A stretch of 64,000 nucleotides of DNA from Eubacteriales bacterium. GTDB taxonomy: Bacteria > Bacillota > Clostridia > Oscillospirales > CAG-272. How positions within the stretch are numbered: the first letter of the stretch is position 1; every line of letters starts with the position of its first letter. Positions 14,773 to 49,157 of this stretch are shown here, one piece after another. Where the stretch lies: positions 4,849 to 68,848 of the forward strand of contig JAZREL010000014.1 in assembly GCA_045660785.1 (NCBI GenBank), given 5' to 3'. Position numbers and translations under genes: made by a program. Below the pieces are notes generated by a model. That model did not search any database. It saw only the letters and a program-made list of their open reading frames with translations, and was not told the origin of the DNA.

Positions 14773-15828
14773 ATGGATTTTTCTAAAATGCCCGACTTTT
14801 TTGCTGGCTCCCTTTCATCAAGGGAGGCGTGGGAGCAAAAAAGAACGGAATTAAAATCACTTATATTAAACGAGGAGTACGGCACGTTCCCCTCTCTTCC
14901 CTCTCCCTCTATTACGGTTGAGCGACAAGGCGTCAACTTTGCAGGCAAGGCGGATTGGGACCGCGTGAGCTTTGAATTTTCTCAAGGCGAAAGGACACAC
15001 ACGGTTGAAGCCGAGCTGATTTTGCTAAAAAACGAGCCGCTAAACAAGCCGCTCTTTATTTACATTGACTTTTCTAAGGAAACGCCTTCAAAATATTTAC
15101 CCGTTGAGGAAATTTTAGATAGCGGCTGTAACATTTTCAAGGTTTTCTATCAGGACGTAACAAGTGACGACGGGGATTTTGAAAACGGTCTTTGCGCGCT
15201 TGCCTCGGGCGGTGGCGAGATATACGGAAAAATTGCCGTATGGTCATATTTTTTAAGAATTATGGCAGACTATCTTTGTTCAATCGGCTACACGGGCACG
15301 CTTGCGGTTGCAGGACATTCTCGCCTTGGAAAAACCGCACTGCTTACCGCAGCTTACGACGAAAGATTTATGCTTGCTTGCGTAAACAACAGCGGCTGCG
15401 CGGGTGCGTCATTCTCGCGCTTTAAGGAAAATGGCGAGGAAACAATAAAGGACATTGTGGGCACGTTCCCATTCTGGTTCAAGAAAAAATTCCACTCGTA
15501 CGTAGATAACGAGGATGCCTTACCCTTTGACCAACATATGCTTCTTGCCTTGGTTGCGCCAAGGTGCGCACTTATCGGCTGTGCCGAGCTTGACTATTGG
15601 GCGGACAACGATGGCGCTTATCACTCTTGCCTGCTTGCAAGCGGCGCGTGGGGGGCTTACGGCAAGACGGGAATTTTCCCTGCGCCTCATTCATATAGCG
15701 AGCTGACAAAGGACAATCTATATCCAACGTTAATGGGGAAAGAGCTTGGCTACTTTATAAGAAGCGGCACACATTTCTTGTCCCGTTACGATTGGCAAAA
15801 ATACATAGAAAAAATAAAGGAGCTTTAA
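14773..15828 (+). CDS. Alpha/beta hydrolase, CE15 glucuronoyl-esterase-like
   Basis: Start at MDFSKM after GGAGG. Nucleophile elbow AGHSRLGKTAL resembles the CE15 G-x-S-R-x-G motif. PFDQHMLLALVAPR and a C-terminal GTH are also present. Confidence 0.5.
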   Translation: MDFSKMPDFFAGSLSSREAWEQKRTELKSLILNEEYGTFPSLPSPSITVERQGVNFAGKADWDRVSFEFSQGERTHTVEAELILLKNEPLNKPLFIYIDFSKETPSKYLPVEEILDSGCNIFKVFYQDVTSDDGDFENGLCALASGGGEIYGKIAVWSYFLRIMADYLCSIGYTGTLAVAGHSRLGKTALLTAAYDERFMLACVNNSGCAGASFSRFKENGEETIKDIVGTFPFWFKKKFHSYVDNEDALPFDQHMLLALVAPRCALIGCAELDYWADNDGAYHSCLLASGAWGAYGKTGIFPAPHSYSELTKDNLYPTLMGKELGYFIRSGTHFLSRYDWQKYIEKIKEL

Positions 15829-23433: not shown

Positions 23434-23505
23434 TTATAATTCTACCTCAAGCAGCTTGTCAAGCTCCGCGCTCTTTTCGCTTGAGTATAGGGGGAGGCGT
23501 ATATC
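23434..23505 (-). pseudogene. Displaced, recoded duplicate of the last 23 codons + stop of dapA
   Basis: Encodes DIRLPLYSSEKSAELDKLLEVEL*, versus ELRLPLSPTQKSAELDKLLEIEL* at the live dapA end. It lies downstream of the inserted element. Confidence 0.7.
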
Positions 23506-23602
23506 TTGCCTTCCCCAGTTAGGGGAAGGGGGACCGCAGTTGGGTGCTTGAAAACAAGCGGTGCGCGAAAACGCCTGCGGTGGATGAGGTGTATAATGCA
23601 TA
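23506..23602 (-). mobile_element. Solo-end palindromic mini-element (divergent member of the DUF559-cassette TIR family) inserted right after the dapA stop
   Basis: Outer palindrome CCTTCCCC-agtta-GGGGAAGG, then GGGGACCGCAGTTGGGTG and CTGCGGTGGATGAGGTGT. These parallel GGGGACCGCTTGCGGTGGAGGGATTGGTGTG of the full element at 40110. Confidence 0.5.
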
Positions 23603-24478
23603 TCAAAGCTCAATTTCGAGTAATTTGTCAAGCTCTGCGCTCTTCTGAGTCGGAGAAAGGGGGAGGCGTAGCTCGTTTTCCATAAAACCGAGGCGCGAAA
23701 GGAGATATTTTAGCGGCACGGGGTTGGTTTCACAAAAAAGTGATGATATAATTGGAGATAGCTCACGTTGGATTTTTAGCGAAATATCGACACGTCCCGC
23801 CACGAAATGAGTGCAAAGCTCGCGCATTTTTCTTGGCACAAGGTTTGAAGCAACCGAAACTACGCCATAGCCGCCAAGGGACAAATTCAGGTAGGTCATA
23901 TCGTCGTTGCCTGTGTAAATTGCGTATCTTTCGCCGTATAATCGGTGCAGCTCCTGCAAATAGCTCGCGTTTCCGCTTGCCTCCTTAACCGCGACTATAT
24001 TTTCCTCATCAATGAGCTTTCCGTAAACGGAAAGTGGGATTTGCGCGCCCGTTCTTGACGGCACGTTATATAAAATCAGCGGAAGCGGTGTGCTTTTTGC
24101 CACCTCCCTAAAGTGATTTACAAGCCCGTTTTCGTTTGGCTTATTGTAGTATGGCGAGACGCACAAAAGTGCATTTGCCCCCGAGGAGTGTGCGTTTTTG
24201 GCATATCTTACCGTGCTTTCGGTGCAGTTTGTGCCGACACCGACAACAAGGGGAATTCTTCCCTTTACTACCTCGCTTGAAAATTTTACTATTTCCTCGC
24301 GCTCACTCTCGCTAACCGTGGGTGCTTCCCCCGTTGTGCCGAGAACCACTATCGCGTCTGCGCCGTTTTCTATTTGATATTCTATTACGTGCCCAAGCGC
24401 TAAGCAGTCAACCTCGCCGCCCTTAAAGGGAGTGGGGAGCGCGGTGATAACGCCAAAGGGCAAAATATTCTTTTGCAT
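23603..24478 (-). CDS. dapA: 4-hydroxy-tetrahydrodipicolinate synthase
   Basis: 291 aa. GVITALPTPF, VLGTTGEAPT and YNVPSRTG motifs. Confidence 0.9.
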   Translation of the reverse strand: MQKNILPFGVITALPTPFKGGEVDCLALGHVIEYQIENGADAIVVLGTTGEAPTVSESEREEIVKFSSEVVKGRIPLVVGVGTNCTESTVRYAKNAHSSGANALLCVSPYYNKPNENGLVNHFREVAKSTPLPLILYNVPSRTGAQIPLSVYGKLIDEENIVAVKEASGNASYLQELHRLYGERYAIYTGNDDMTYLNLSLGGYGVVSVASNLVPRKMRELCTHFVAGRVDISLKIQRELSPIISSLFCETNPVPLKYLLSRLGFMENELRLPLSPTQKSAELDKLLEIEL

Positions 24479-32499: not shown

Positions 32500-33525
32500 A
32501 TGAAAACAGTATGCTTTGGCGAAATTATGCTCCGCTTAAATCCGGCGGGATACACAAGATTTATTCAAACAGATACGTTTGGCGCAACCTACGGTGGCGG
32601 TGAAGCAAACGTTGCAGTTTCTCTTGCTAACTACGGCATTGATGCATCCTACGTTACAAAGCTTCCAAGCCACGAAATCGGTCAAAGCGCGGTTAACTCA
32701 CTCCGCAGATACGGCGTTGACACAAGCGACATCGTAAGAGGTGGCGAGCGCGTTGGTATTTACTACCTTGAAACAGGCGCATCACAAAGACCGTCAAAGG
32801 TTATTTACGACCGTGCATATTCAGCTATTGCTCTTGCAAAGAGAAGCGATTTTGATTGGGAAAAGATCCTCGACGGCGCAAATTGGTTCCACTTTACAGG
32901 CATCACTCCGGCACTCGGCGGTGAGCTTCCCGAAATTTGTATGGACGCACTTAAGGTTTGCCGCGAAAAGGGCATCACCACAAGTTGCGACCTTAACTAC
33001 CGCAAAAACCTTTGGTCAACAGAGGAAGCAGGCAAGGTTATGGGCGAGCTTATGAAGCTTGTTGACGTTTGCATTGCAAACGAGGAGGACGCTGAAAAGG
33101 TATTCGGCATTAAGGCAGAAAACACAGACGTTGACGCAGGCGTTGTTAACCACGAGGGCTACAAGAGCGTTGCATCACAGCTCTCTGCCCGTTTCGGCTT
33201 CAAGCGCGTTGCTATTACACTCCGTACAAGCATTTCGGCAAACGACAACGTTTGGGCGGCTATGCTCTATGATGCAAACGAAAACGAATACTATTTCTCA
33301 CGCTCATATAACATCCACATCGTTGACCGTGTTGGCGGCGGTGACTCATTCGGCGGCGGTCTTATCTACGCTTCCTTGATGAACAAGTCAAGCCAAGACG
33401 TTATCGAATTTGCAGTTGGGGCATCATGCCTCAAGCACACAATTATCGGTGACTATAACTTAGTTAGCGTAAAAGAGGTTGAAGGCCTCATCAAGGGCGG
33501 CGGCTCAGGACGCGTTCAAAGATAA
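32500..33525 (+). CDS. kdgK: 2-dehydro-3-deoxygluconokinase (PfkB family)
   Basis: 341 aa. FGEIMLRLNP, GGGEANVAV and DRVGGGDSF motifs. Confidence 0.85.
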   Translation: MKTVCFGEIMLRLNPAGYTRFIQTDTFGATYGGGEANVAVSLANYGIDASYVTKLPSHEIGQSAVNSLRRYGVDTSDIVRGGERVGIYYLETGASQRPSKVIYDRAYSAIALAKRSDFDWEKILDGANWFHFTGITPALGGELPEICMDALKVCREKGITTSCDLNYRKNLWSTEEAGKVMGELMKLVDVCIANEEDAEKVFGIKAENTDVDAGVVNHEGYKSVASQLSARFGFKRVAITLRTSISANDNVWAAMLYDANENEYYFSRSYNIHIVDRVGGGDSFGGGLIYASLMNKSSQDVIEFAVGASCLKHTIIGDYNLVSVKEVEGLIKGGGSGRVQR

Positions 33526-33591
33526 CTTCCAAGCTTAAGGACAATCCCTCCGTCAACTACGTTGACACCTCCCTTTGCACAAAGGAGGCAA
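33526..33591 (+). mobile_element. Solo-end palindromic mini-element (TIR-family member) inserted right after the kdgK stop
   Basis: CAATCCCTC + hairpin GTCAAC-tac-GTTGAC + CTCCCTTTGCACAAAGGAG. This has the same three-part architecture as the right TIR of the DUF559 cassette at 40482. Confidence 0.6.
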
Positions 33592-33621
33592 GGCGGCGGA
33601 AGCGGACGAGTTCAAAGATAA
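33592..33621 (+). pseudogene. Displaced, recoded duplicate of the last 9 codons + stop of kdgK
   Basis: GGC GGC GGA AGC GGA CGA GTT CAA AGA TAA, versus the live GGC GGC GGC TCA GGA CGC GTT CAA AGA TAA. There are 5 nt differences, all synonymous (including TCA/AGC Ser). Confidence 0.7.
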
Positions 33622-38233: not shown

Positions 38234-40141
38234 ATGAAGGACGGATATATAAAGGTTAAATCAATCTCGCCGCGCACAGAGGTTGGCGGAGTTAGCTTTA
38301 ACAAGGAAGAAATCGTAAAGGAAATCAAAAGCGCAATCGGCCAGGGCGTAAAAATCCTCGTTTTTCCCGAGCTTACGTTAACGGGTAAGACGGCGGGTGA
38401 TATGGCTTACAGCGGCGTTATACTAAACGCTTGTGAAAAAGCGCTTCTAAACATCAAATTTGCGACACAGGGTAGCGATATTTTGGTTTTTGTCGGCGCT
38501 CCGCTTCAGTATAAGGGTGCATCCTATTCCTGCGCGGTTGCAATAAAATCGGGTGAGATTTTGGGCGTTGTGCCTAAGATTGGAAAAATGCCGTACTTTA
38601 AGGATTTTATAAAAATCGGTGACGAGAAATATCCGTTTGGCACGGATTTACTCTTTACCTGCAAGGAAATTAGTGACCTGACCATTGGCGTTGTCATCGG
38701 TGACGCCGTTGCAAATCCTTCACCGAAGGGATTTTTCCTTTGCGAAAACGGCGCAACAGTTATTGTTAACCTCTCGGGCAGCTACGAGCTTGTTTCGAGC
38801 GAGGAAATAAGACGCGCCGCGTTTGTTTCAAAGAGTTATGCCACGAGAAGTGCTTATATCGTTGCAAATCCAAGCGAGGACGAGTCAACGACGTCTAACG
38901 TTTATTCCGCTCATAATTTCATTGTGGAAAACGGTGATATTTTAGCGGAAAGCAAGCCGTTTGAGAAGAAAACAGGCGACTGTGTGTCTGAAATTGACGT
39001 TTCTTACCTTGCGGGCAAAAGAAATTCCGTCGGTGCGCGCGCCGAGGCAATAACGGACGTTTCCTTCTCTTTTAAGCTTGAAAAAACCACTCTTACAAGA
39101 AAAATTTCAAAAACACCTTTTTTTCCTGAAGGCAAGGAAGAACTCAAAAGGCACTGTGAAAAAATCCTCACAATGCAGTCACGCTCCCTTGCCAAAAGGT
39201 TGACTGCATCTTATTCCAAGGGAATGGTGCTTGGAATTTCGGGCGGCCTTGACTCCACTCTTGCCCTTCTTGCCTGCGTTAAGTGCGCGGACTATCTCGG
39301 TTGGGACAGAAAAACGGTCACCGCCATTACAATGCCCTGCTTTGGCACAACAAAGCGCACAAAATCAAACGCGACCGAGCTTTGCAAATCCCTTGGAGTT
39401 ACGCTTCGCGAAATAAACATCTTTGAAGCAACAAGGGTTCATTTCAAGGACATCGGACACGACGAAAACGACCATAGCGTAGTTTACGAAAATGCGCAAG
39501 CACGTGAGCGCACACAAATTTTAATGGACGTGGCTAATTCAATCGGCGCGCTTGTTATCGGCACGGGCGACCTTTCCGAGGTTGCACTCGGTTGGTCAAC
39601 CTACAACGGTGACCATATGTCGATGTATAATATAAATTCCGCCCTTCCAAAGACCTTAATCAGACACGTGGTCGAGCATTTTGCAAATATAAGCGACGAA
39701 AACGTGAAAGGAATTTTGCTTGATATTCTTGATACTCCCGTTTCCCCCGAGCTTCTTCCAGCCAAGGAAAACGGCGAAATTGAGCAAAAAACAGAGGACA
39801 TTGTCGGCCCATACGAGTTACACGATTTCTTTATTTACAATTTTGTAGGGCGCAAATTTGCCCCCTCAAAGATTTACCGCTTGGCGCTTTACGCCTTTGG
39901 TGGAAAATACGACGGCGACACCGTTTATAAATGGCTCACCGTATTTATCAAGCGCTTCTTTACTCAGCAGTTCAAGCGCTCCTGCTCACCTGACGGAATC
40001 AGAATCGGCTCAGTTTCCCTCTCAAAAAATGATTTTTCAATGGTAAGCGATTTTTCGTACAAATCATTTTTAGAGGAGTTAAATTCATGCCTCCCTTGTG
40101 CAAAGGGAGGGGGACCGCTTGCGGTGGAGGGATTGGTGTGA
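38234..40141 (+). CDS. nadE: Glutamine-dependent NAD+ synthetase, C-terminus replaced by read-through into an inserted element
   Basis: 635 aa. N-terminal nitrilase-like domain plus a synthetase domain (GISGGLDST, NAQARERT). The last 19 aa (SCLPCAKGGGPLAVEGLV and nearby residues) are encoded by the element's inverted repeat. The native ...EELNENK* ending survives in the displaced copy. Confidence 0.85.
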   Translation: MKDGYIKVKSISPRTEVGGVSFNKEEIVKEIKSAIGQGVKILVFPELTLTGKTAGDMAYSGVILNACEKALLNIKFATQGSDILVFVGAPLQYKGASYSCAVAIKSGEILGVVPKIGKMPYFKDFIKIGDEKYPFGTDLLFTCKEISDLTIGVVIGDAVANPSPKGFFLCENGATVIVNLSGSYELVSSEEIRRAAFVSKSYATRSAYIVANPSEDESTTSNVYSAHNFIVENGDILAESKPFEKKTGDCVSEIDVSYLAGKRNSVGARAEAITDVSFSFKLEKTTLTRKISKTPFFPEGKEELKRHCEKILTMQSRSLAKRLTASYSKGMVLGISGGLDSTLALLACVKCADYLGWDRKTVTAITMPCFGTTKRTKSNATELCKSLGVTLREINIFEATRVHFKDIGHDENDHSVVYENAQARERTQILMDVANSIGALVIGTGDLSEVALGWSTYNGDHMSMYNINSALPKTLIRHVVEHFANISDENVKGILLDILDTPVSPELLPAKENGEIEQKTEDIVGPYELHDFFIYNFVGRKFAPSKIYRLALYAFGGKYDGDTVYKWLTVFIKRFFTQQFKRSCSPDGIRIGSVSLSKNDFSMVSDFSYKSFLEELNSCLPCAKGGGPLAVEGLV

Positions 40142-40533
40142 ACAGACGTCACAACAAGCTACTCGTACCATTAGCAAAGAATCTTCGAAAAGATATGACG
40201 GATGAGGAAAAACACTTGTGGTATGATTTTTTGAGAACCTACCCTGTTCGCTTCATTCGCCAAAAAATAATAGACGGCTATATAGTAGATTTTTATTGTG
40301 CAAAAGCTAAATTGGTTATTGAGCTTGACGGTTCTCAACACGGCGAAGAAAAAAACGCAATAAAAGATTCTGCGCGCGATTTTGAACTCTCGAAATACGA
40401 CATAAAAGTCATAAGGATACCTAATCATAAAATTTGGAATAACTTTAAGGGCGTTTGCGAGTACATTGACTTTCAAGTTCTCCAATCCCTCAGTCAGCAT
40501 AGCTGACAGCTCCCTTTGCACAAGGGAGCCAAA
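40085..40533 (+). mobile_element. DUF559-nuclease cassette bounded by about 46-nt composite terminal inverted repeats
   Basis: Left end, 40091-40136: CTCCCTTGTGCAAAGGGAG + GGGGACCGCTTGCGGTG + GAGGGATTGG. Right end, 40482-40528: CCAATCCCTC + AGTCAGCATAGCTGACAG + CTCCCTTTGCACAAGGGAG. The outer 19-mer and inner 10-mer are exact reverse complements. The middle is a different hairpin in each end. Confidence 0.65.
40138..40506 (+). CDS. DUF559 domain endonuclease (Vsr/PD-(D/E)XK-like)
   Basis: 122 aa from GTG (VNRRHNKLLVPLAKNLRKDMTDEEKHLWYDFLR...YIVDFYCAKAKLVIELDGSQH...). The ATG at 40087 is an alternative start but lies inside the palindrome. The stop falls in the right-end hairpin. Confidence 0.75.
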   Translation: MNRRHNKLLVPLAKNLRKDMTDEEKHLWYDFLRTYPVRFIRQKIIDGYIVDFYCAKAKLVIELDGSQHGEEKNAIKDSARDFELSKYDIKVIRIPNHKIWNNFKGVCEYIDFQVLQSLSQHS

Positions 40534-40650
40534 TCCCGCTCACCTGACGGAGTTCGTATTGGCTCGGTTTCCCTCTCCAAGAACGACTTTAAAATGGCAA
40601 GTGACTTTTCATACAAATCATTTTTAGAGGAATTAAACGAAAATAAATAA
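40534..40650 (+). pseudogene. Displaced, recoded duplicate of the last about 37 codons + stop of nadE
   Basis: Encodes SPDGVRIGSVSLSKNDFKMASDFSYKSFLEELNENK*. Over the 33 codons shared with the live copy, 15 codons differ: 12 synonymously and 3 by replacement (I/V, S/K, V/A). Confidence 0.75.
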
Positions 40651-40666: not shown

Positions 40667-41101
40667 ATGAAAGCATTACTTTTAAAAATTCCCGCATTAG
40701 TTGCAATTTGTTTGAGCTTGTTAAGCCTGTTGCTTGTTTTGTTTATGGTTATTTGCTCCGTAAACGAAAACCCTGCGGAGCAAGAAGGATTTTCGCCTTC
40801 ATTTACTTTTTGGATTTTTAGCATTTTGACCGCTCTTATTAGCATTATTTTTTTCTATGCCGACGGAGTTATGGCTATAGTAAACGCCATACGTAAAAAC
40901 AACGTTATTTTTAATATTATTTTTGCAATTGTTATATTTATCAGCCCTATTTTGCTATTTACGGTTGGTGCCTCAGATGGCAGAGGGTTTATAATATGGA
41001 ACGTTTATTACCTTGGGCTTTTATCGCTCGAAGCAGTTTCCATCATTTTTCTCATTAAAAAAATTCATAAAGAGAACCCCAAGCCTCAAATTTCGGCTTG
41101 A
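40667..41101 (+). CDS. Hypothetical 4-TM membrane protein
   Basis: 144 aa. AAAAGGAGAAA SD and four hydrophobic segments. Confidence 0.5.
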   Translation: MKALLLKIPALVAICLSLLSLLLVLFMVICSVNENPAEQEGFSPSFTFWIFSILTALISIIFFYADGVMAIVNAIRKNNVIFNIIFAIVIFISPILLFTVGASDGRGFIIWNVYYLGLLSLEAVSIIFLIKKIHKENPKPQISA

Positions 41102-46420: not shown

Positions 46421-46456
46421 TTATTTGTTAAGAAGTGTTTCAACAAGTGTGGGTGC
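46421..46456 (-). pseudogene. Displaced, recoded duplicate of the last 11 codons + stop of alaS
   Basis: Encodes APTLVETLLNK*, versus the live ALALVETLLSK*. 8 of 36 nt differ, including synonymous Leu recodings (CTC/CTT, TTG/CTT). Confidence 0.65.
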
Positions 46457-46538
46457 TTCTTTTCGCCTCCCTTGTGCAAAGGTGAGGTGGCACGACTTGT
46501 CGTGACGGAGGGATTGACCGTTTGCTTTAGCAATTATT
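46457..46538 (-). mobile_element. Solo-end palindromic mini-element (TIR-family member) inserted right after the alaS stop
   Basis: The plus strand reads CTCCCTTGTGCAAAGGTGAG + GTGGCACGACTTGTCGTGAC + GGAGGGATTG. This is the three-part TIR architecture, and its orientation relative to the host gene matches the kdgK copy. Confidence 0.6.
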
Positions 46539-49157
46539 TTATTTGCTCAAGAGTGTTTCAACAAGTGCAAGCGCATCGGCAATTTTGGAGATGTCCTTGC
46601 CGCCGCTCATTGCGCTGTCGGGGCGTCCGCCGCCCTTACCGCCTGTTACTGCGCTAACCTCGCCAAGGATTTTGCCTGCGTGTGCGCCGTTTTTAACTGC
46701 ACCCTTACCGCATACTGCGATAAAGTTGAGCTTTTCGCCTGAATGGATTGCAAATACAGCAACTGCGTTTTCGTCCTTGTCCTTGATTACGTCACCAAGT
46801 GAACGAACCGCGTCAGCACCCATATCACCAAGGTTTGCGGTGATAACGTTGAATGCGCCAACTGCTTTTGCGCTGCTGATTAAGTCGTTAACTCTTGATG
46901 AAGCCATCTTGGAGTTAAGAGATTCAATCTCGCGCTTGAGAGCTTTTATTTCCTCATTTACCGCGCCTGCACGCTTAGCAATATCGTTTACGTTTTGGCA
47001 CTTAAGCTCGCTTGATGCCTTTTCAAGGAGATTTTCCTTGTTTTCAAGGAGTGAAAGCACGCCGTAGCCCGTTGTCGCTTCAATTCTGCGCACGCCTGCC
47101 GCAACGCCAATCTCGGAAATAATCTTAAACATACCTGCCTTTGCGGTATTGTCAAGGTGAGTACCGCCACAAAGCTCGGTTGAATAGTCGCCCATTTTAA
47201 CCATACGTACAACCTTGCCGTACTTTTCTCCAAAGAGAGCCATTGCACCGTTTTTACGTGCGGTTTCAATATCTGTTTCGAGTGTTTCAACCACTGTGCC
47301 CGAAAGGATTGCCTCGTTTACAAGTGCTTCAACCTCTTTGATTTCGTCCTTTGTGAGTGCTTGGAAGTGTGTAAAGTCAAATCTGCCGATTCTTTCATCA
47401 ACGTATGAGCCCGCTTGCTCAACGTGTGTGCCGAGAACCTTGCGGAGTGCGGCTTGGAGCAAGTGAACGGATGAGTGGTTTCTTGCAATAGAAGCACGTC
47501 TTGCGCCGTCAACCTGGCAGTTGAGCGTGTCGCCAACCTTTACTGTGCCGCTTGCAATTTTACACATATGAATATATACGCCGTCTGATTTTTTGGTGTC
47601 AACAACCTCAATTTCAGCATTTTCGTTTGTAAGTGCGCCTGTGTCGCCAACCTGACCGCCGCCCTCACCGTAGAATGAGGTAGTGTCGAGAACAACGGAG
47701 CATTCGCCCTCGCTTACTTCGCTTACGCTTTCGCCGTTTTCGTCAATAATTGCGATAACCTTGCCGCTTGCTTGGAGCGTGGTGTAGCCCTCGAACACAG
47801 TCTTTGGAAGCTCCAAGGATTTTTCCTTGTCCTGCCAACCGCTAATGCTTGCACGTGCGCTTCTCGCTCTTTGCTTTTGCTCCTGCATAAGCGCTGTAAA
47901 CTTGTCCATATCGGTGCCAAGTCCGTTTTCCTCGGCAATTTCACGGGTTAAGTCAATTGGAAAGCCAAAGGTGTCGTAAAGCTTGAACGCGTCCGCGCCG
48001 TCAAGAGTATCCTTGCCGCTTTCCTTTGCTTCCTTAATAAGATTTTCAAGAATTGAAAGTCCTTGGTCGATGGTTGCGGCAAAGCGCTCCTCCTCAAGAG
48101 CAAGAACCTTTTTGATGTAGTCTGATTTTTCCTCAAGCTCGCGATAGCCATCCTTGCTTTCGCCAATTGCAACCTCGCACATTTCAACAAGGAATGCACG
48201 CTCAATTCCAAGGAGCTTACCGTGACGGCAAGCGCGGCGAATGATACGGCGAAGCACGTAGCCCCTGCCCTCGTTTGAAGGAATAACGCCGTCGGAAATC
48301 ATAAACATTGCGCTTCTTGTATGGTCGGTGATAACGCGGATTGAAATATCATCTGCGGCATCCTTGCCGTAGGTTTTGCCTGAAATTTCGCACACGGTGT
48401 CAAGGATTTTACGTACGGAGTCAACCTCGAACATATTGTCAACGTCCTGCATTACGCAAGCAAGACGCTCAAGACCCATACCTGTATCGATGTTCTTTTG
48501 TGCAAGCTCTGTATAGTTGCCTTGTCCGTCGTTGTTGAACTGTGAAAATACGTTGTTCCAAATTTCCATGTATCTGTCGCAGTCGCAGCCCGGCTTACAG
48601 TCGTCTGAGCCACAGCCGTGCTTAATTCCACGGTCAAAGTAAATTTCGGAGCAAGGGCCGCAAGGACCTGAGCCGTGCTCCCAGAAGTTATCTGCCTTAC
48701 CGAGGCGAACAACGTGCGCAGGGTTAACGCCGATTTTGTTTACCCAAATATCGTACGCTTCCTCGTCGTTTTCGTAAATTGACGGCCAAAGAAGCTCACC
48801 GGGGATTTCAAGTGTAACGGTTAAAAACTCCCAAGCAAACTGAATTGCCTCCTCCTTGAAGTAGTCACCGAAGCTGAAGTTGCCAAGCATTTCAAAGAAC
48901 GTGCCGTGGCGCGCGGTGTGACCAACTCTTTCAAGGTCAGGTGTTCTTATACACTTTTGGCAGGTGGTAACTCTCTTTGAAGGAGGCACAACCTCACCTG
49001 TAAAGAACTTTTTCATCGGAGCCATACCCGAGTTTATAAGAAGAAGGGATTTATCGTTGTTTGGAACGAGCGAAAAGCTGCCAAGACGAAGGTGTCCCTT
49101 GCTTTCAAAATAGGAAAGATATTTTTCTCTTAAATCGTTAAGTGATGTCCATTTCAT
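46539..49157 (-). CDS. alaS: Alanine--tRNA ligase
   Basis: Start at MKWTSLNDLREKYLSYFESKGH (18 codons into the track ORF). Class II motifs, editing domain and C-terminal DHHA1-like GGGRPD. Confidence 0.95.
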   Translation of the reverse strand: MKWTSLNDLREKYLSYFESKGHLRLGSFSLVPNNDKSLLLINSGMAPMKKFFTGEVVPPSKRVTTCQKCIRTPDLERVGHTARHGTFFEMLGNFSFGDYFKEEAIQFAWEFLTVTLEIPGELLWPSIYENDEEAYDIWVNKIGVNPAHVVRLGKADNFWEHGSGPCGPCSEIYFDRGIKHGCGSDDCKPGCDCDRYMEIWNNVFSQFNNDGQGNYTELAQKNIDTGMGLERLACVMQDVDNMFEVDSVRKILDTVCEISGKTYGKDAADDISIRVITDHTRSAMFMISDGVIPSNEGRGYVLRRIIRRACRHGKLLGIERAFLVEMCEVAIGESKDGYRELEEKSDYIKKVLALEEERFAATIDQGLSILENLIKEAKESGKDTLDGADAFKLYDTFGFPIDLTREIAEENGLGTDMDKFTALMQEQKQRARSARASISGWQDKEKSLELPKTVFEGYTTLQASGKVIAIIDENGESVSEVSEGECSVVLDTTSFYGEGGGQVGDTGALTNENAEIEVVDTKKSDGVYIHMCKIASGTVKVGDTLNCQVDGARRASIARNHSSVHLLQAALRKVLGTHVEQAGSYVDERIGRFDFTHFQALTKDEIKEVEALVNEAILSGTVVETLETDIETARKNGAMALFGEKYGKVVRMVKMGDYSTELCGGTHLDNTAKAGMFKIISEIGVAAGVRRIEATTGYGVLSLLENKENLLEKASSELKCQNVNDIAKRAGAVNEEIKALKREIESLNSKMASSRVNDLISSAKAVGAFNVITANLGDMGADAVRSLGDVIKDKDENAVAVFAIHSGEKLNFIAVCGKGAVKNGAHAGKILGEVSAVTGGKGGGRPDSAMSGGKDISKIADALALVETLLSK

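Follow-up and report, generated by a model that had tools for sequence, protein, structure and literature searches.

The question raised by this locus is why a housekeeping gene, nadE, runs into a foreign repeat and is followed by a second, recoded copy of its own 3′ end. The locus lies in a 64,000-nucleotide stretch of an Eubacteriales bacterium genome (contig JAZREL010000014.1, positions 4,849 to 68,848 of the forward strand). This whole stretch is called the window, and coordinates refer to it unless a relative is named. The insert at nadE is a ~120-aa DUF559 gene between two inverted ~50-nt modules, each composed of an 8-bp-stem palindrome, a variable hairpin, and an inner 10-mer. The answer developed below is that the element is a homing-type endonuclease cassette with gene-tail replacement combined with repeats like those of repetitive extragenic palindromic (REP) sequences and miniature inverted-repeat transposable elements (MITEs), and that it represents a real, recurrent, and widespread family. 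The balance of evidence tips toward the nadE insert being an autonomous member of this REP/MITE-like family that has its own Vsr-fold nuclease, spreads by host-gene-anchored recombination, and displaces the resident tail.

The glutamine-dependent NAD synthase gene nadE (38234–40141, plus strand) was identified by PF02540 (E = 3.6e-28) and is a 100% match to P0121. Its protein ends in ...EELN-SCLPCAKGGGPLAVEGLV (C-termini are written up to the last residue before the stop codon), and the last 18 codons are read from the left end of the element. The left end (40088–40136, plus strand) has three parts. The palindrome is CCTCCCTTGTGCAAAGGGAGG at 40090–40110; the 19-mer CTCCCTTGTGCAAAGGGAG at 40091–40109 has an exact reverse complement at 40510–40528. 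The inner 10-mer GAGGGATTGG at 40127–40136 is the exact complement of 40482–40491. Between palindrome and 10-mer is a hairpin, ACCGC-tt-GCGGT. The right end (40482–40531, plus strand) consists of CCAATCCCTC, the hairpin GTCAGC-ata-GCTGAC, and the palindrome GCTCCCTTTGCACAAGGGAGC, and its boundary falls after ...GGGAGCC. The two middle hairpins differ in sequence and both are paired. An earlier note on this DNA had described three-part inverted ends (46 nt) around a 369-nt open reading frame (ORF), and they were found where it placed them. It had also called the 19-mer a palindrome; the inverted copies are exact, but the sequence is really a 7–8 bp stem with a 5-nt loop and not a full palindrome. 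Searching the window with the 19-mer at up to three mismatches gave 5 matches versus 0.01 expected.

The nuclease ORF (40138–40506, plus strand; 369 nt, 122 aa, GTG start; PF04480) fills the space between the ends, and the whole element measures 0.45 kb. The nuclease C-terminus is QSLSQHS, and its last residues (QSLSQ) are encoded by the right end. A Shine-Dalgarno sequence, GGAGG, can be read within the inner 10-mer 7 nt 5′ of the GTG start, and the nadE stop codon TGA (40139–40141) shares a 4-nt overlap, GTGA (40138–40141), with the DUF559 start codon. A 4-nt stop/start overlap (GTGA or TTGA) is also present in two relatives, L134 (4405–4408) and L001 (3001–3004). The reading of these signals suggests that translation of the nuclease is coupled to nadE.

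The last part of nadE is present twice. Tail A (SPDGIRIG...FLEELN; 39980–40083, plus strand) is translated, and tail B (40534–40650, plus strand) is an untranslated, recoded copy that has the native ending ...EELNENK. The direct repeat 39980–40083/40534–40637 is 83% identical. Over the 33 codons SPDG...ELN the copies differ by 12 synonymous and 3 replacement changes. The read-through of nadE into the left repeat and the second recoded tail had both been described in the earlier note, and its counts hold; its statement that all three replacements are conservative does not, because S/K is not a conservative exchange.

This arrangement is not confined to nadE. A palindrome search located two further modules, at 33540–33589 and 46465–46519, each a single end without a nuclease gene. 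The first is a solo module of left-end type (plus strand, read from inner motif to palindrome) that lies between the stop codon and 14-nt untranslated region (UTR) of a pfkB-family kinase gene and a recoded copy of its tail. Kinase tail A (GGGSGRVQR; 33496–33525, plus strand) and tail B (33592–33621, plus strand) have identical translations of nine residues and a stop, although five nucleotides differ (GGC/GGA, TCA/AGC for serine, CGC/CGA); the terminator of the gene comes after tail B. The second solo, also of left-end type (46465–46519, plus strand), is located 3′ of alaS, a minus-strand gene, with its palindrome side toward the tail copy. The alaS tail A (...ALALVETLLSK; 46539–46574) and tail B (APTLVETLLNK; 46421–46456) are on the minus strand, and a terminator hairpin follows tail B. 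At both solos the order is gene stop and short UTR, module, then a copy of the last 9–11 codons, stop, and UTR, and both modules lie directly 5′ of the gene's terminator hairpin.

A further site at dapA was absent from the earlier note. This module-plus-tail-copy site (23434–23670, minus strand) contains a solo module of a sister family 3′ of dapA (23508–23592, minus strand), with the inner motif ACACCTCATCC, a long middle hairpin, and the palindrome CCTTCCCC-n5-GGGGAAGG at 23509–23529. The dapA (dihydrodipicolinate synthase) tail A (RLPLSPTQKSAELDKLLEIEL; 23603–23670) and tail B (RLPLYSSEKSAELDKLLEVEL; 23434–23501) are both on the minus strand. All 59 long-ORF ends of the window were scanned for a diverged downstream tail copy. 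The four top scores were nadE (37.8), dapA (24.2), alaS (20.8), and the kinase (19.0), compared to a control maximum of 12. The four best tail copies are exactly the module sites, and 4/4 module sites in the window have one. The nadE site singled out by the earlier note is thus real, but it is only one of four.

The differences between tail copies reveal how they arose. Pooled Nei-Gojobori counts over eight tail pairs gave 43.4 synonymous differences per 84.5 sites and 20.6 replacement differences per 335.5 sites, a ratio of nonsynonymous to synonymous proportions (pN/pS) of 0.12. This value rejects two neutral copies (P = 5e-16). A local-duplication model, with tail A constrained and tail B free to decay, is also rejected (P = 4e-8). 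At solo sites the coding part of the duplication is protein-conserved, whereas the duplicated UTR is far more diverged. The pN/pS ratio together with the UTR contrast indicates that both copies are working gene ends of different lineages that were joined by recombination. The earlier note had proposed that the two nadE tails evolved as coding sequence in different lineages, and the pooled ratio bears this out by rejecting decay in place. Frequent gene conversion between tails A and B (L001, L223, and L134) alone gives no such synonymous bias.

The nadE site is polymorphic among relatives. The NadE relatives form a tight clade at 76–89% identity (the next match is 57%), and empty, occupied, and footprinted alleles occur at the same site of this conserved gene within it. 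The native NadE protein has 620 aa and ends in ...EELDENK, the occupied form has 635 aa and ends in ...EELD-SCLPCAKGGGPLVVEGLK, and the footprinted form ends in ...EELD-SSLPCAKEP. An occupied protein with the insertion at a second site, two codons further, ends in EELDNN-ASLVQREGDR. Many of the closest DUF559 homologues (74–82%) are on contigs equal in length to those of NadE matches from this clade, and every closest homologue whose locus was retrieved adjoins nadE.

The DNA of ten relatives was compared at nadE. The earlier note had proposed a search for empty alleles, and two true empty sites were found (L135 and L137). Both have a single tail, so relatives lacking the cassette do not already carry a tandemly duplicated nadE end. 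Five sites (L001, L003, L134, L219, and L221) are occupied and read tail, element, tail. In L222 and L223, one hybrid palindrome, in which half of the left end (its left half) is joined to the right-end terminus, is followed by tail B, which is decaying in L222. Loss by collapse of the two palindromes, leaving an in-frame footprint, is shown by these alleles. L136 contains a solo module of the sister family and a 17-codon tail copy.

These sites also record later changes. The two tails of L001 are identical over 98 nt, which points to gene conversion, and then differ at 6 of the last 13 nt. In L134 (4797–4960), tail B is followed by a second left end and the start of a nuclease gene, and then by a scaffold gap (N run); the sequence would fit either a tandem of element plus tail or the junction of an excised circle. 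Removal of 69 nt between AGCG repeats would turn the L001 junction into that of L222, and short forms of tail B may therefore derive from long ones, in which case the duplication is old in these subclades. The nadE tail of the window holds a 15-nt inverted repeat (40021–40035/40061–40075, 93% complementary, 25 nt apart), and the short tail-B forms of relatives start inside the loop of this repeat.

Such recurrence bears on the possibility that a local accident or an assembly artefact produced the nadE structure, with a small gene trapped by a tandem duplication of the tail. A single full copy is present in the window, and repeats can be misjoined in metagenome assemblies. Against this stand the same structure in independent assemblies from different samples and sources (L001, L003, L134, L219, and L221), the four sites in this window, and tail copies that differ mostly at synonymous sites. 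We regard an accident or artefact as extremely improbable, and this explanation is already refuted.

Pairs of occupied relatives were used to locate the units of exchange. Between L219 and L221 (c6484 and c4701), identity is 64–94% along nadE (100-nt windows), 91% over the last 55 nt of tail A, 98–99% for the element from palindrome to palindrome, and 77% for tail B. The drop in identity comes directly after GGAGCCTT. In the same pair the DUF559 proteins are 97% identical compared to 87% for NadE. A second pair, L140 (1–1442) and L141 (1452–2893), has an identical element and left flank (97% over 1442 nt), and the similarity ends ~33 nt after the ORF, at the right palindrome. These breaks indicate that the element is exchanged as a discrete unit and that its outer boundary is a recombination point. 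The element is thus younger than its host gene or incongruent with it. One genome (c12332) has an outgroup NadE but a nested DUF559, so that the trees are partly incongruent, and the NadE and DUF559 identity matrices correlate only at r = 0.51. The region 3′ of nadE is not conserved among relatives.

The 122-aa protein matches PF04480, which belongs to the Vsr/DUF559/DUF2726 clade of PD-(D/E)XK nucleases, with 93.7 bits versus a cut-off of 20.6 (E = 7.8e-27), which bears out the DUF559 identity given to the ORF in the earlier note. The match to NCBIfam NF007294 is weak (49.9 bits, below its cut-off of 218). Residues D51, E62, D64, and H68 are invariant in 22 sequences and form a D...ExD...H pattern. 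Among PDB entries, the protein profile matches 3hrl (E = 8e-16) and, at E = 0.002, 3r3p, which is the catalytic domain of the homing endonuclease I-Bth0305I; it also matches 28,922 cluster representatives at 50% identity. A Foldseek search with the AlphaFold model returned 3r3p as the top match (TM score of 0.77 on the target) followed by 3hrl; Vsr structures ranked 13th and 18th, and Vsr and TnsA fell below 3r3p and 3hrl. The 3hrl, 3r3p, and Vsr matches place the protein in the restriction-endonuclease-like fold with conserved acidic and histidine residues. A published survey places Vsr, DUF559, and I-Bth0305I in one clade (PMC3424549). The allusion of the earlier note to homing cassettes agrees with the model, whose predicted fold is closest to a known homing endonuclease. 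The protein corresponds approximately to the catalytic domain alone. A function as a Vsr very-short-patch repair endonuclease was rejected; the PF03852 (Vsr) profile did not match, and no methyltransferase (a cytosine methyltransferase would be the partner) was found among the neighboring ORFs. The protein is DUF559, and no Y1_Tnp domain (HUH Y1, IS200-like) was found in it.

A rival explanation is a classical gene-specific homing cassette, as in the earlier note and in the model for fungi discussed below. DUF559 would cleave empty nadE close to the insertion point, double-strand-break repair would copy the element together with a resistant, recoded tail A, and tail B would be the displaced native tail. 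Consistent with such a cassette, the nadE-linked DUF559 proteins are one clade (74–82%) confined to one NadE clade in which empty and occupied alleles are interspersed, the fold is closest to I-Bth0305I, tail B has the native ENK ending, and the L136 tail B resembles the ending of an empty relative. L136 and L137 are only ~80% identical, and this comparison lends weak support to tail B being the resident type. The layout also equals that of the mobile endonuclease ORFs (mORFs) of fungi, in which the endonucleases are reported as the drivers of mobility (PMC3630166). Several results do not fit. At dapA, pfkB, and alaS the same architecture lacks a nuclease gene and involves two module families. 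In L001, where the two tails agree over 98 nt, tail A is no resistant variant. The L219/L221 element was exchanged without tail A, so the cleavage-resistant allele suggested by the earlier note is not borne out. The 122-aa protein also lacks the kind of additional DNA-binding domain that I-Bth0305I has. Finally, modules co-vary with the nuclease, as described below, which points to the ends, and not the host gene, as the partner of the protein. Taken together, a gene-specific homing cassette appears unlikely.

Most members of the family lack the nuclease. A strict module pattern was scanned over one-genome-per-species contigs, with counts given as stretches, and at least 120 genome stretches contain it. 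Nearly all are metagenome-assembled genomes of gut or rumen Clostridia (e.g., Oscillospiraceae, Acutalibacteraceae, and Faecousia). The search for the repeat pattern and protein elsewhere had been proposed in the earlier note; the repeat ends recur both in the window and in other genomes, and they define a real element with defined ends. The element had looked like a curiosity of nadE and is instead one autonomous copy of a huge, mostly ORF-less REP/MITE-like family. There are two module types, one equivalent to the right end and the other to the left end of the full element, and module boundaries are sharp, on the inner side between AC and AATCCCTC and on the outer side at GGGAG(CC/GC). Solos or close inverted doublets dominate, and a DUF559 ORF is present in ~5/120 loci among the matches listed. 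ORF-less doublets and single modules far outnumber full copies, by analogy with MITEs or with REP and their doublets (REPINs), which outnumber their parent genes.

The hairpin of the module is conserved as a structure. The middle part has 136 distinct sequences across the 144 unique modules, yet 128 modules form a hairpin with a stem of 5 bp or more. The minimum free energy of the middle is -5.2 kcal/mol versus -1.1 kcal/mol for shuffles. C(TNC)G makes up 55/85 triloops; the opposite strand then reads C(GNA)G. A GNA triloop with a C:G closing pair is characteristic of very stable DNA hairpins and not of RNA hairpins. This bias hints that the folded single strand is what matters. UNCG or GNRA RNA tetraloops were considered for the middle hairpin and rejected because the loops are mostly C(TNC)G triloops.

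Distant DUF559 genes have their own modules. At 69 metagenome loci with DUF559 genes of 48–67% identity, the flanking modules have the same three-part design but belong to other sequence families with different palindromes and inner motifs, and the gene is often inside a module array. As inverted repeats, the two ends of one locus match each other far more closely than they match ends from other loci (P = 6e-11). The cognate module families at these loci and the pairing within loci show that gene and ends belong together and co-vary. At another locus, L147, a duplicated flank lies ~108 nt 5′ and 38 nt 3′ of the DUF559 ORF and includes the ribosome-binding site of the downstream gene together with its first codons. 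Since L147 duplicates the start of a gene, the duplications that accompany these elements can involve sequence other than 3′ tails. Many close DUF559 homologues (P0018–P0120) are on contigs of only 0.5–2 kb, which suggests that metagenome assemblies of gut Clostridia break at these repeats.

The location of the modules could also mean that they serve the host. Solos mostly adjoin gene 3′ ends, often between convergent genes, and the window solos are just 5′ of an intrinsic terminator. The elements could act there as terminator, mRNA stabilizer, or nucleoid sites, maintained by a domesticated DUF559 protein as REP-associated tyrosine transposases (RAYTs) maintain REPINs, and the tail duplications would be recombination scars. 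A hairpin kept over 136 different sequences, DUF559 genes inside module arrays, and the presence of P0075 at one stable locus on 24/24 contigs read are all compatible with domestication. On the other side, presence/absence polymorphism and footprints in a coding region look selfish, the element is 98% identical across diverged hosts, the one-strand GNA triloop bias is typical of DNA and not of RNA hairpins, and no Rfam family matches. A domesticated REP-like system is therefore an improbable explanation in our estimation.

The closest precedent for the layout, by analogy, is the mORFs of fungal mitochondria. In Allomyces macrogynus atp6 and in Glomus atp6, atp9, cox2, and nad3, a gene core is followed by an in-frame replacement C-terminus, an endonuclease ORF, and the displaced native C-terminus; the paired C-termini differ mostly at synonymous positions, which was read as transfer between species (PMC3630166). 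The nadE locus shares the core, replacement C-terminus, endonuclease ORF, displaced native C-terminus, and mostly synonymous differences. It differs in its location on a bacterial chromosome, in a Vsr/DUF559 fold in place of LAGLIDADG or GIY-YIG, in composite hairpin inverted-repeat ends, in abundant ORF-less solos and doublets with the same tail duplication, and in one resolved exchange that moved the element without the tail. The earlier note knew of no described mobility mechanism for DUF559 genes. We found no description either, although the mORFs (PMC3630166) provide a precedent for the layout. A literature search on DUF559 or Vsr-like genes with cognate palindromic modules found no description, with subscription journals outside its scope and a prior description possible.

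The closest system for the repeat biology, again by analogy, is REP/REPIN with RAYT genes. In both, short palindromic modules are present in high copy at gene 3′ ends, singly or as inverted doublets; cognate modules flank a nuclease gene; protein and repeat families co-vary; and structure is kept more than sequence. Here, the enzyme is a PD-(D/E)XK nuclease in place of the HUH Y1 type, each bipartite module has a conserved 10-mer and a second hairpin that is hypervariable, the hosts are Clostridia, and insertions enter coding tails with long, diverged flank duplications. The catalytic fold is shared with I-Bth0305I and the EDxHD Vsr-like homing endonucleases (PDB 3r3p; PMC3239194). I-Bth0305I is encoded in a group I intron and has an added DNA-binding region (PMC3239194), whereas no intron is present here and the catalytic domain stands essentially alone. 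An Rfam covariance-model scan of the whole window found no family at gathering score, and known intron, ribozyme, and riboswitch readings of the element were dropped.

Terminal inverted repeat (TIR) transposons, MITEs, and IS200/IS605 elements resemble the family in their terminal inverted repeats, non-autonomous deletion derivatives, and hairpin-forming ends. The ends, as in IS200/IS605, suggest recognition of folded single strands. Unlike those elements, there is no DDE or HUH transposase. A target-site duplication of a TIR transposon or MITE was rejected: the flank copies are 30–104 nt long and 72–100% identical with mostly synonymous differences, and they were diverged at birth. Most solos have no flank copy, so no fixed-length target-site duplication accompanies the modules. 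Integrative elements that replace gene 3′ ends (phages and islands at tRNA and tmRNA genes) also duplicate the gene end around an insert and leave the gene intact, but the insert here is 0.05–0.45 kb and the duplication has no identical core. No integrase was found within 3 kb on either side of the element, and the analogy drawn in the earlier note to integrative elements fails on this point. Integron attC-like, integrase-att, and transposition-duplication readings were also rejected, as no recombinase or transposase is present and the flank copies are not identical. A blastn search of the element against phage and plasmid collections gave no match and identified no vector.

A mechanism can be proposed for the favored explanation, spread of an autonomous element by host-gene-anchored recombination. 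The nuclease would be expressed by coupling to nadE, since the Shine-Dalgarno sequence comes from the left module and the stop of the host ORF overlaps the nuclease start. It would act on its own cognate modules as folded hairpins or cruciforms and cut close to or at the boundary of the outer palindrome. Related genomes would exchange the element, alone or together with adjoining host sequence, by recombination anchored in the conserved gene, a step seen in part in the exchanges between relatives. On the far side, without homology, the module end would be joined inside the tail of the recipient's gene; the lack of conservation 3′ of nadE argues for a joint at the module boundary there. The incoming tail would keep the gene intact as the resident tail is displaced downstream. 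Once displaced, this tail would act as a second, portable arm of homology, and gene conversion, excision, and tandem formation could use it as their substrate. In addition to collapse of the palindromes, recombination between the two tails could remove the element and leave a clean empty site.

Several observations weigh against this explanation. In the wide sample, 8/85 solos show a flank copy (control, 2/510); where it is lacking, tail B may have decayed or many insertions may be simple. Inspection by eye of the right junctions (the window, L134, L001, L003, L219, L136, and three solos) found no consistent shared target motif or microhomology, and the AGCG repeat accounts for deletions within tail B only, and not for the joint. 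Tail A did not accompany the element in the only recent exchange resolved (L219 versus L221); the event looks like a replacement within an already duplicated scaffold and not a colonization step. The junctions of L001, L222, and L223 suggest an old duplication, so repeated refreshment of tail B by recombination must be assumed. The evidence for movement is exchange between genomes and not transposition within a genome. The native tail is also not singled out. The earlier note had asked which tail matches empty alleles; the ENK ending of tail B is the ending of the relatives' empty alleles, but in an identity matrix tails A and B are both 72–80% identical to the tails of six relatives. The nadE body is 82–84% identical to its nearest relatives, so no close reference for the tails exists. 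Codon usage gave -0.31 log units for the nadE tails, and at pfkB it weakly favors tail A as native on the basis of 3 codons only. The AlphaFold model has a predicted local distance difference test score of 73, which is moderate confidence.

Other features of the window are peripheral to these arguments. The ORFs between 37.3 and 44.1 kb are a YmdB-like gene, nadE, DUF559, a membrane ORF, and the oxaloacetate decarboxylase alpha and beta genes. The membrane ORF (40667–41101), between nadE and the decarboxylase genes, has no Pfam match, and this gap differs per relative, with DUF1508 in L003 and L135, a GDSL lipase in L134, and nothing in L001. A lone palindrome of this kind, CTCCCTT-tcatc-AAGGGAG, is at 14808–14826, within the sequence for the N-terminal part of an ORF that begins at 14774. 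Neither a hairpin nor an inner motif adjoins this palindrome, which may be an in-frame footprint of a lost element or a chance occurrence.

The findings have consequences for the hosts and for the protein family. The C-termini of housekeeping proteins are rewritten, with NadE receiving 15–18 foreign residues or an 8-residue footprint, and pseudo-tails are left behind to be miscalled by annotation pipelines. The elements also mark points of gene exchange between species. The large orphan family DUF559 gains a testable role through its tie to cognate hairpin repeats and mobility. A broader generalization is possible, though short of probable, namely that DUF559 proteins are the dedicated nucleases of a new class of mobile DNA that is nuclease-only, has modules recognized in folded form, colonizes the 3′ ends of essential genes, and spreads between species by recombination, using the carried or displaced tail as a homology arm. 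Under this generalization the Vsr-like enzyme may also correct mismatches in extruded hairpins, which would account for stems that vary in sequence yet stay paired. If the proposed mechanism is true, the element would be a bacterial counterpart of the fungal mitochondrial mobile endonuclease ORFs. It would also exemplify REP-like repeats whose enzyme is a PD-(D/E)XK nuclease and not of the HUH type, with a bearing on which enzymes move the many orphan palindromic repeats of bacteria.

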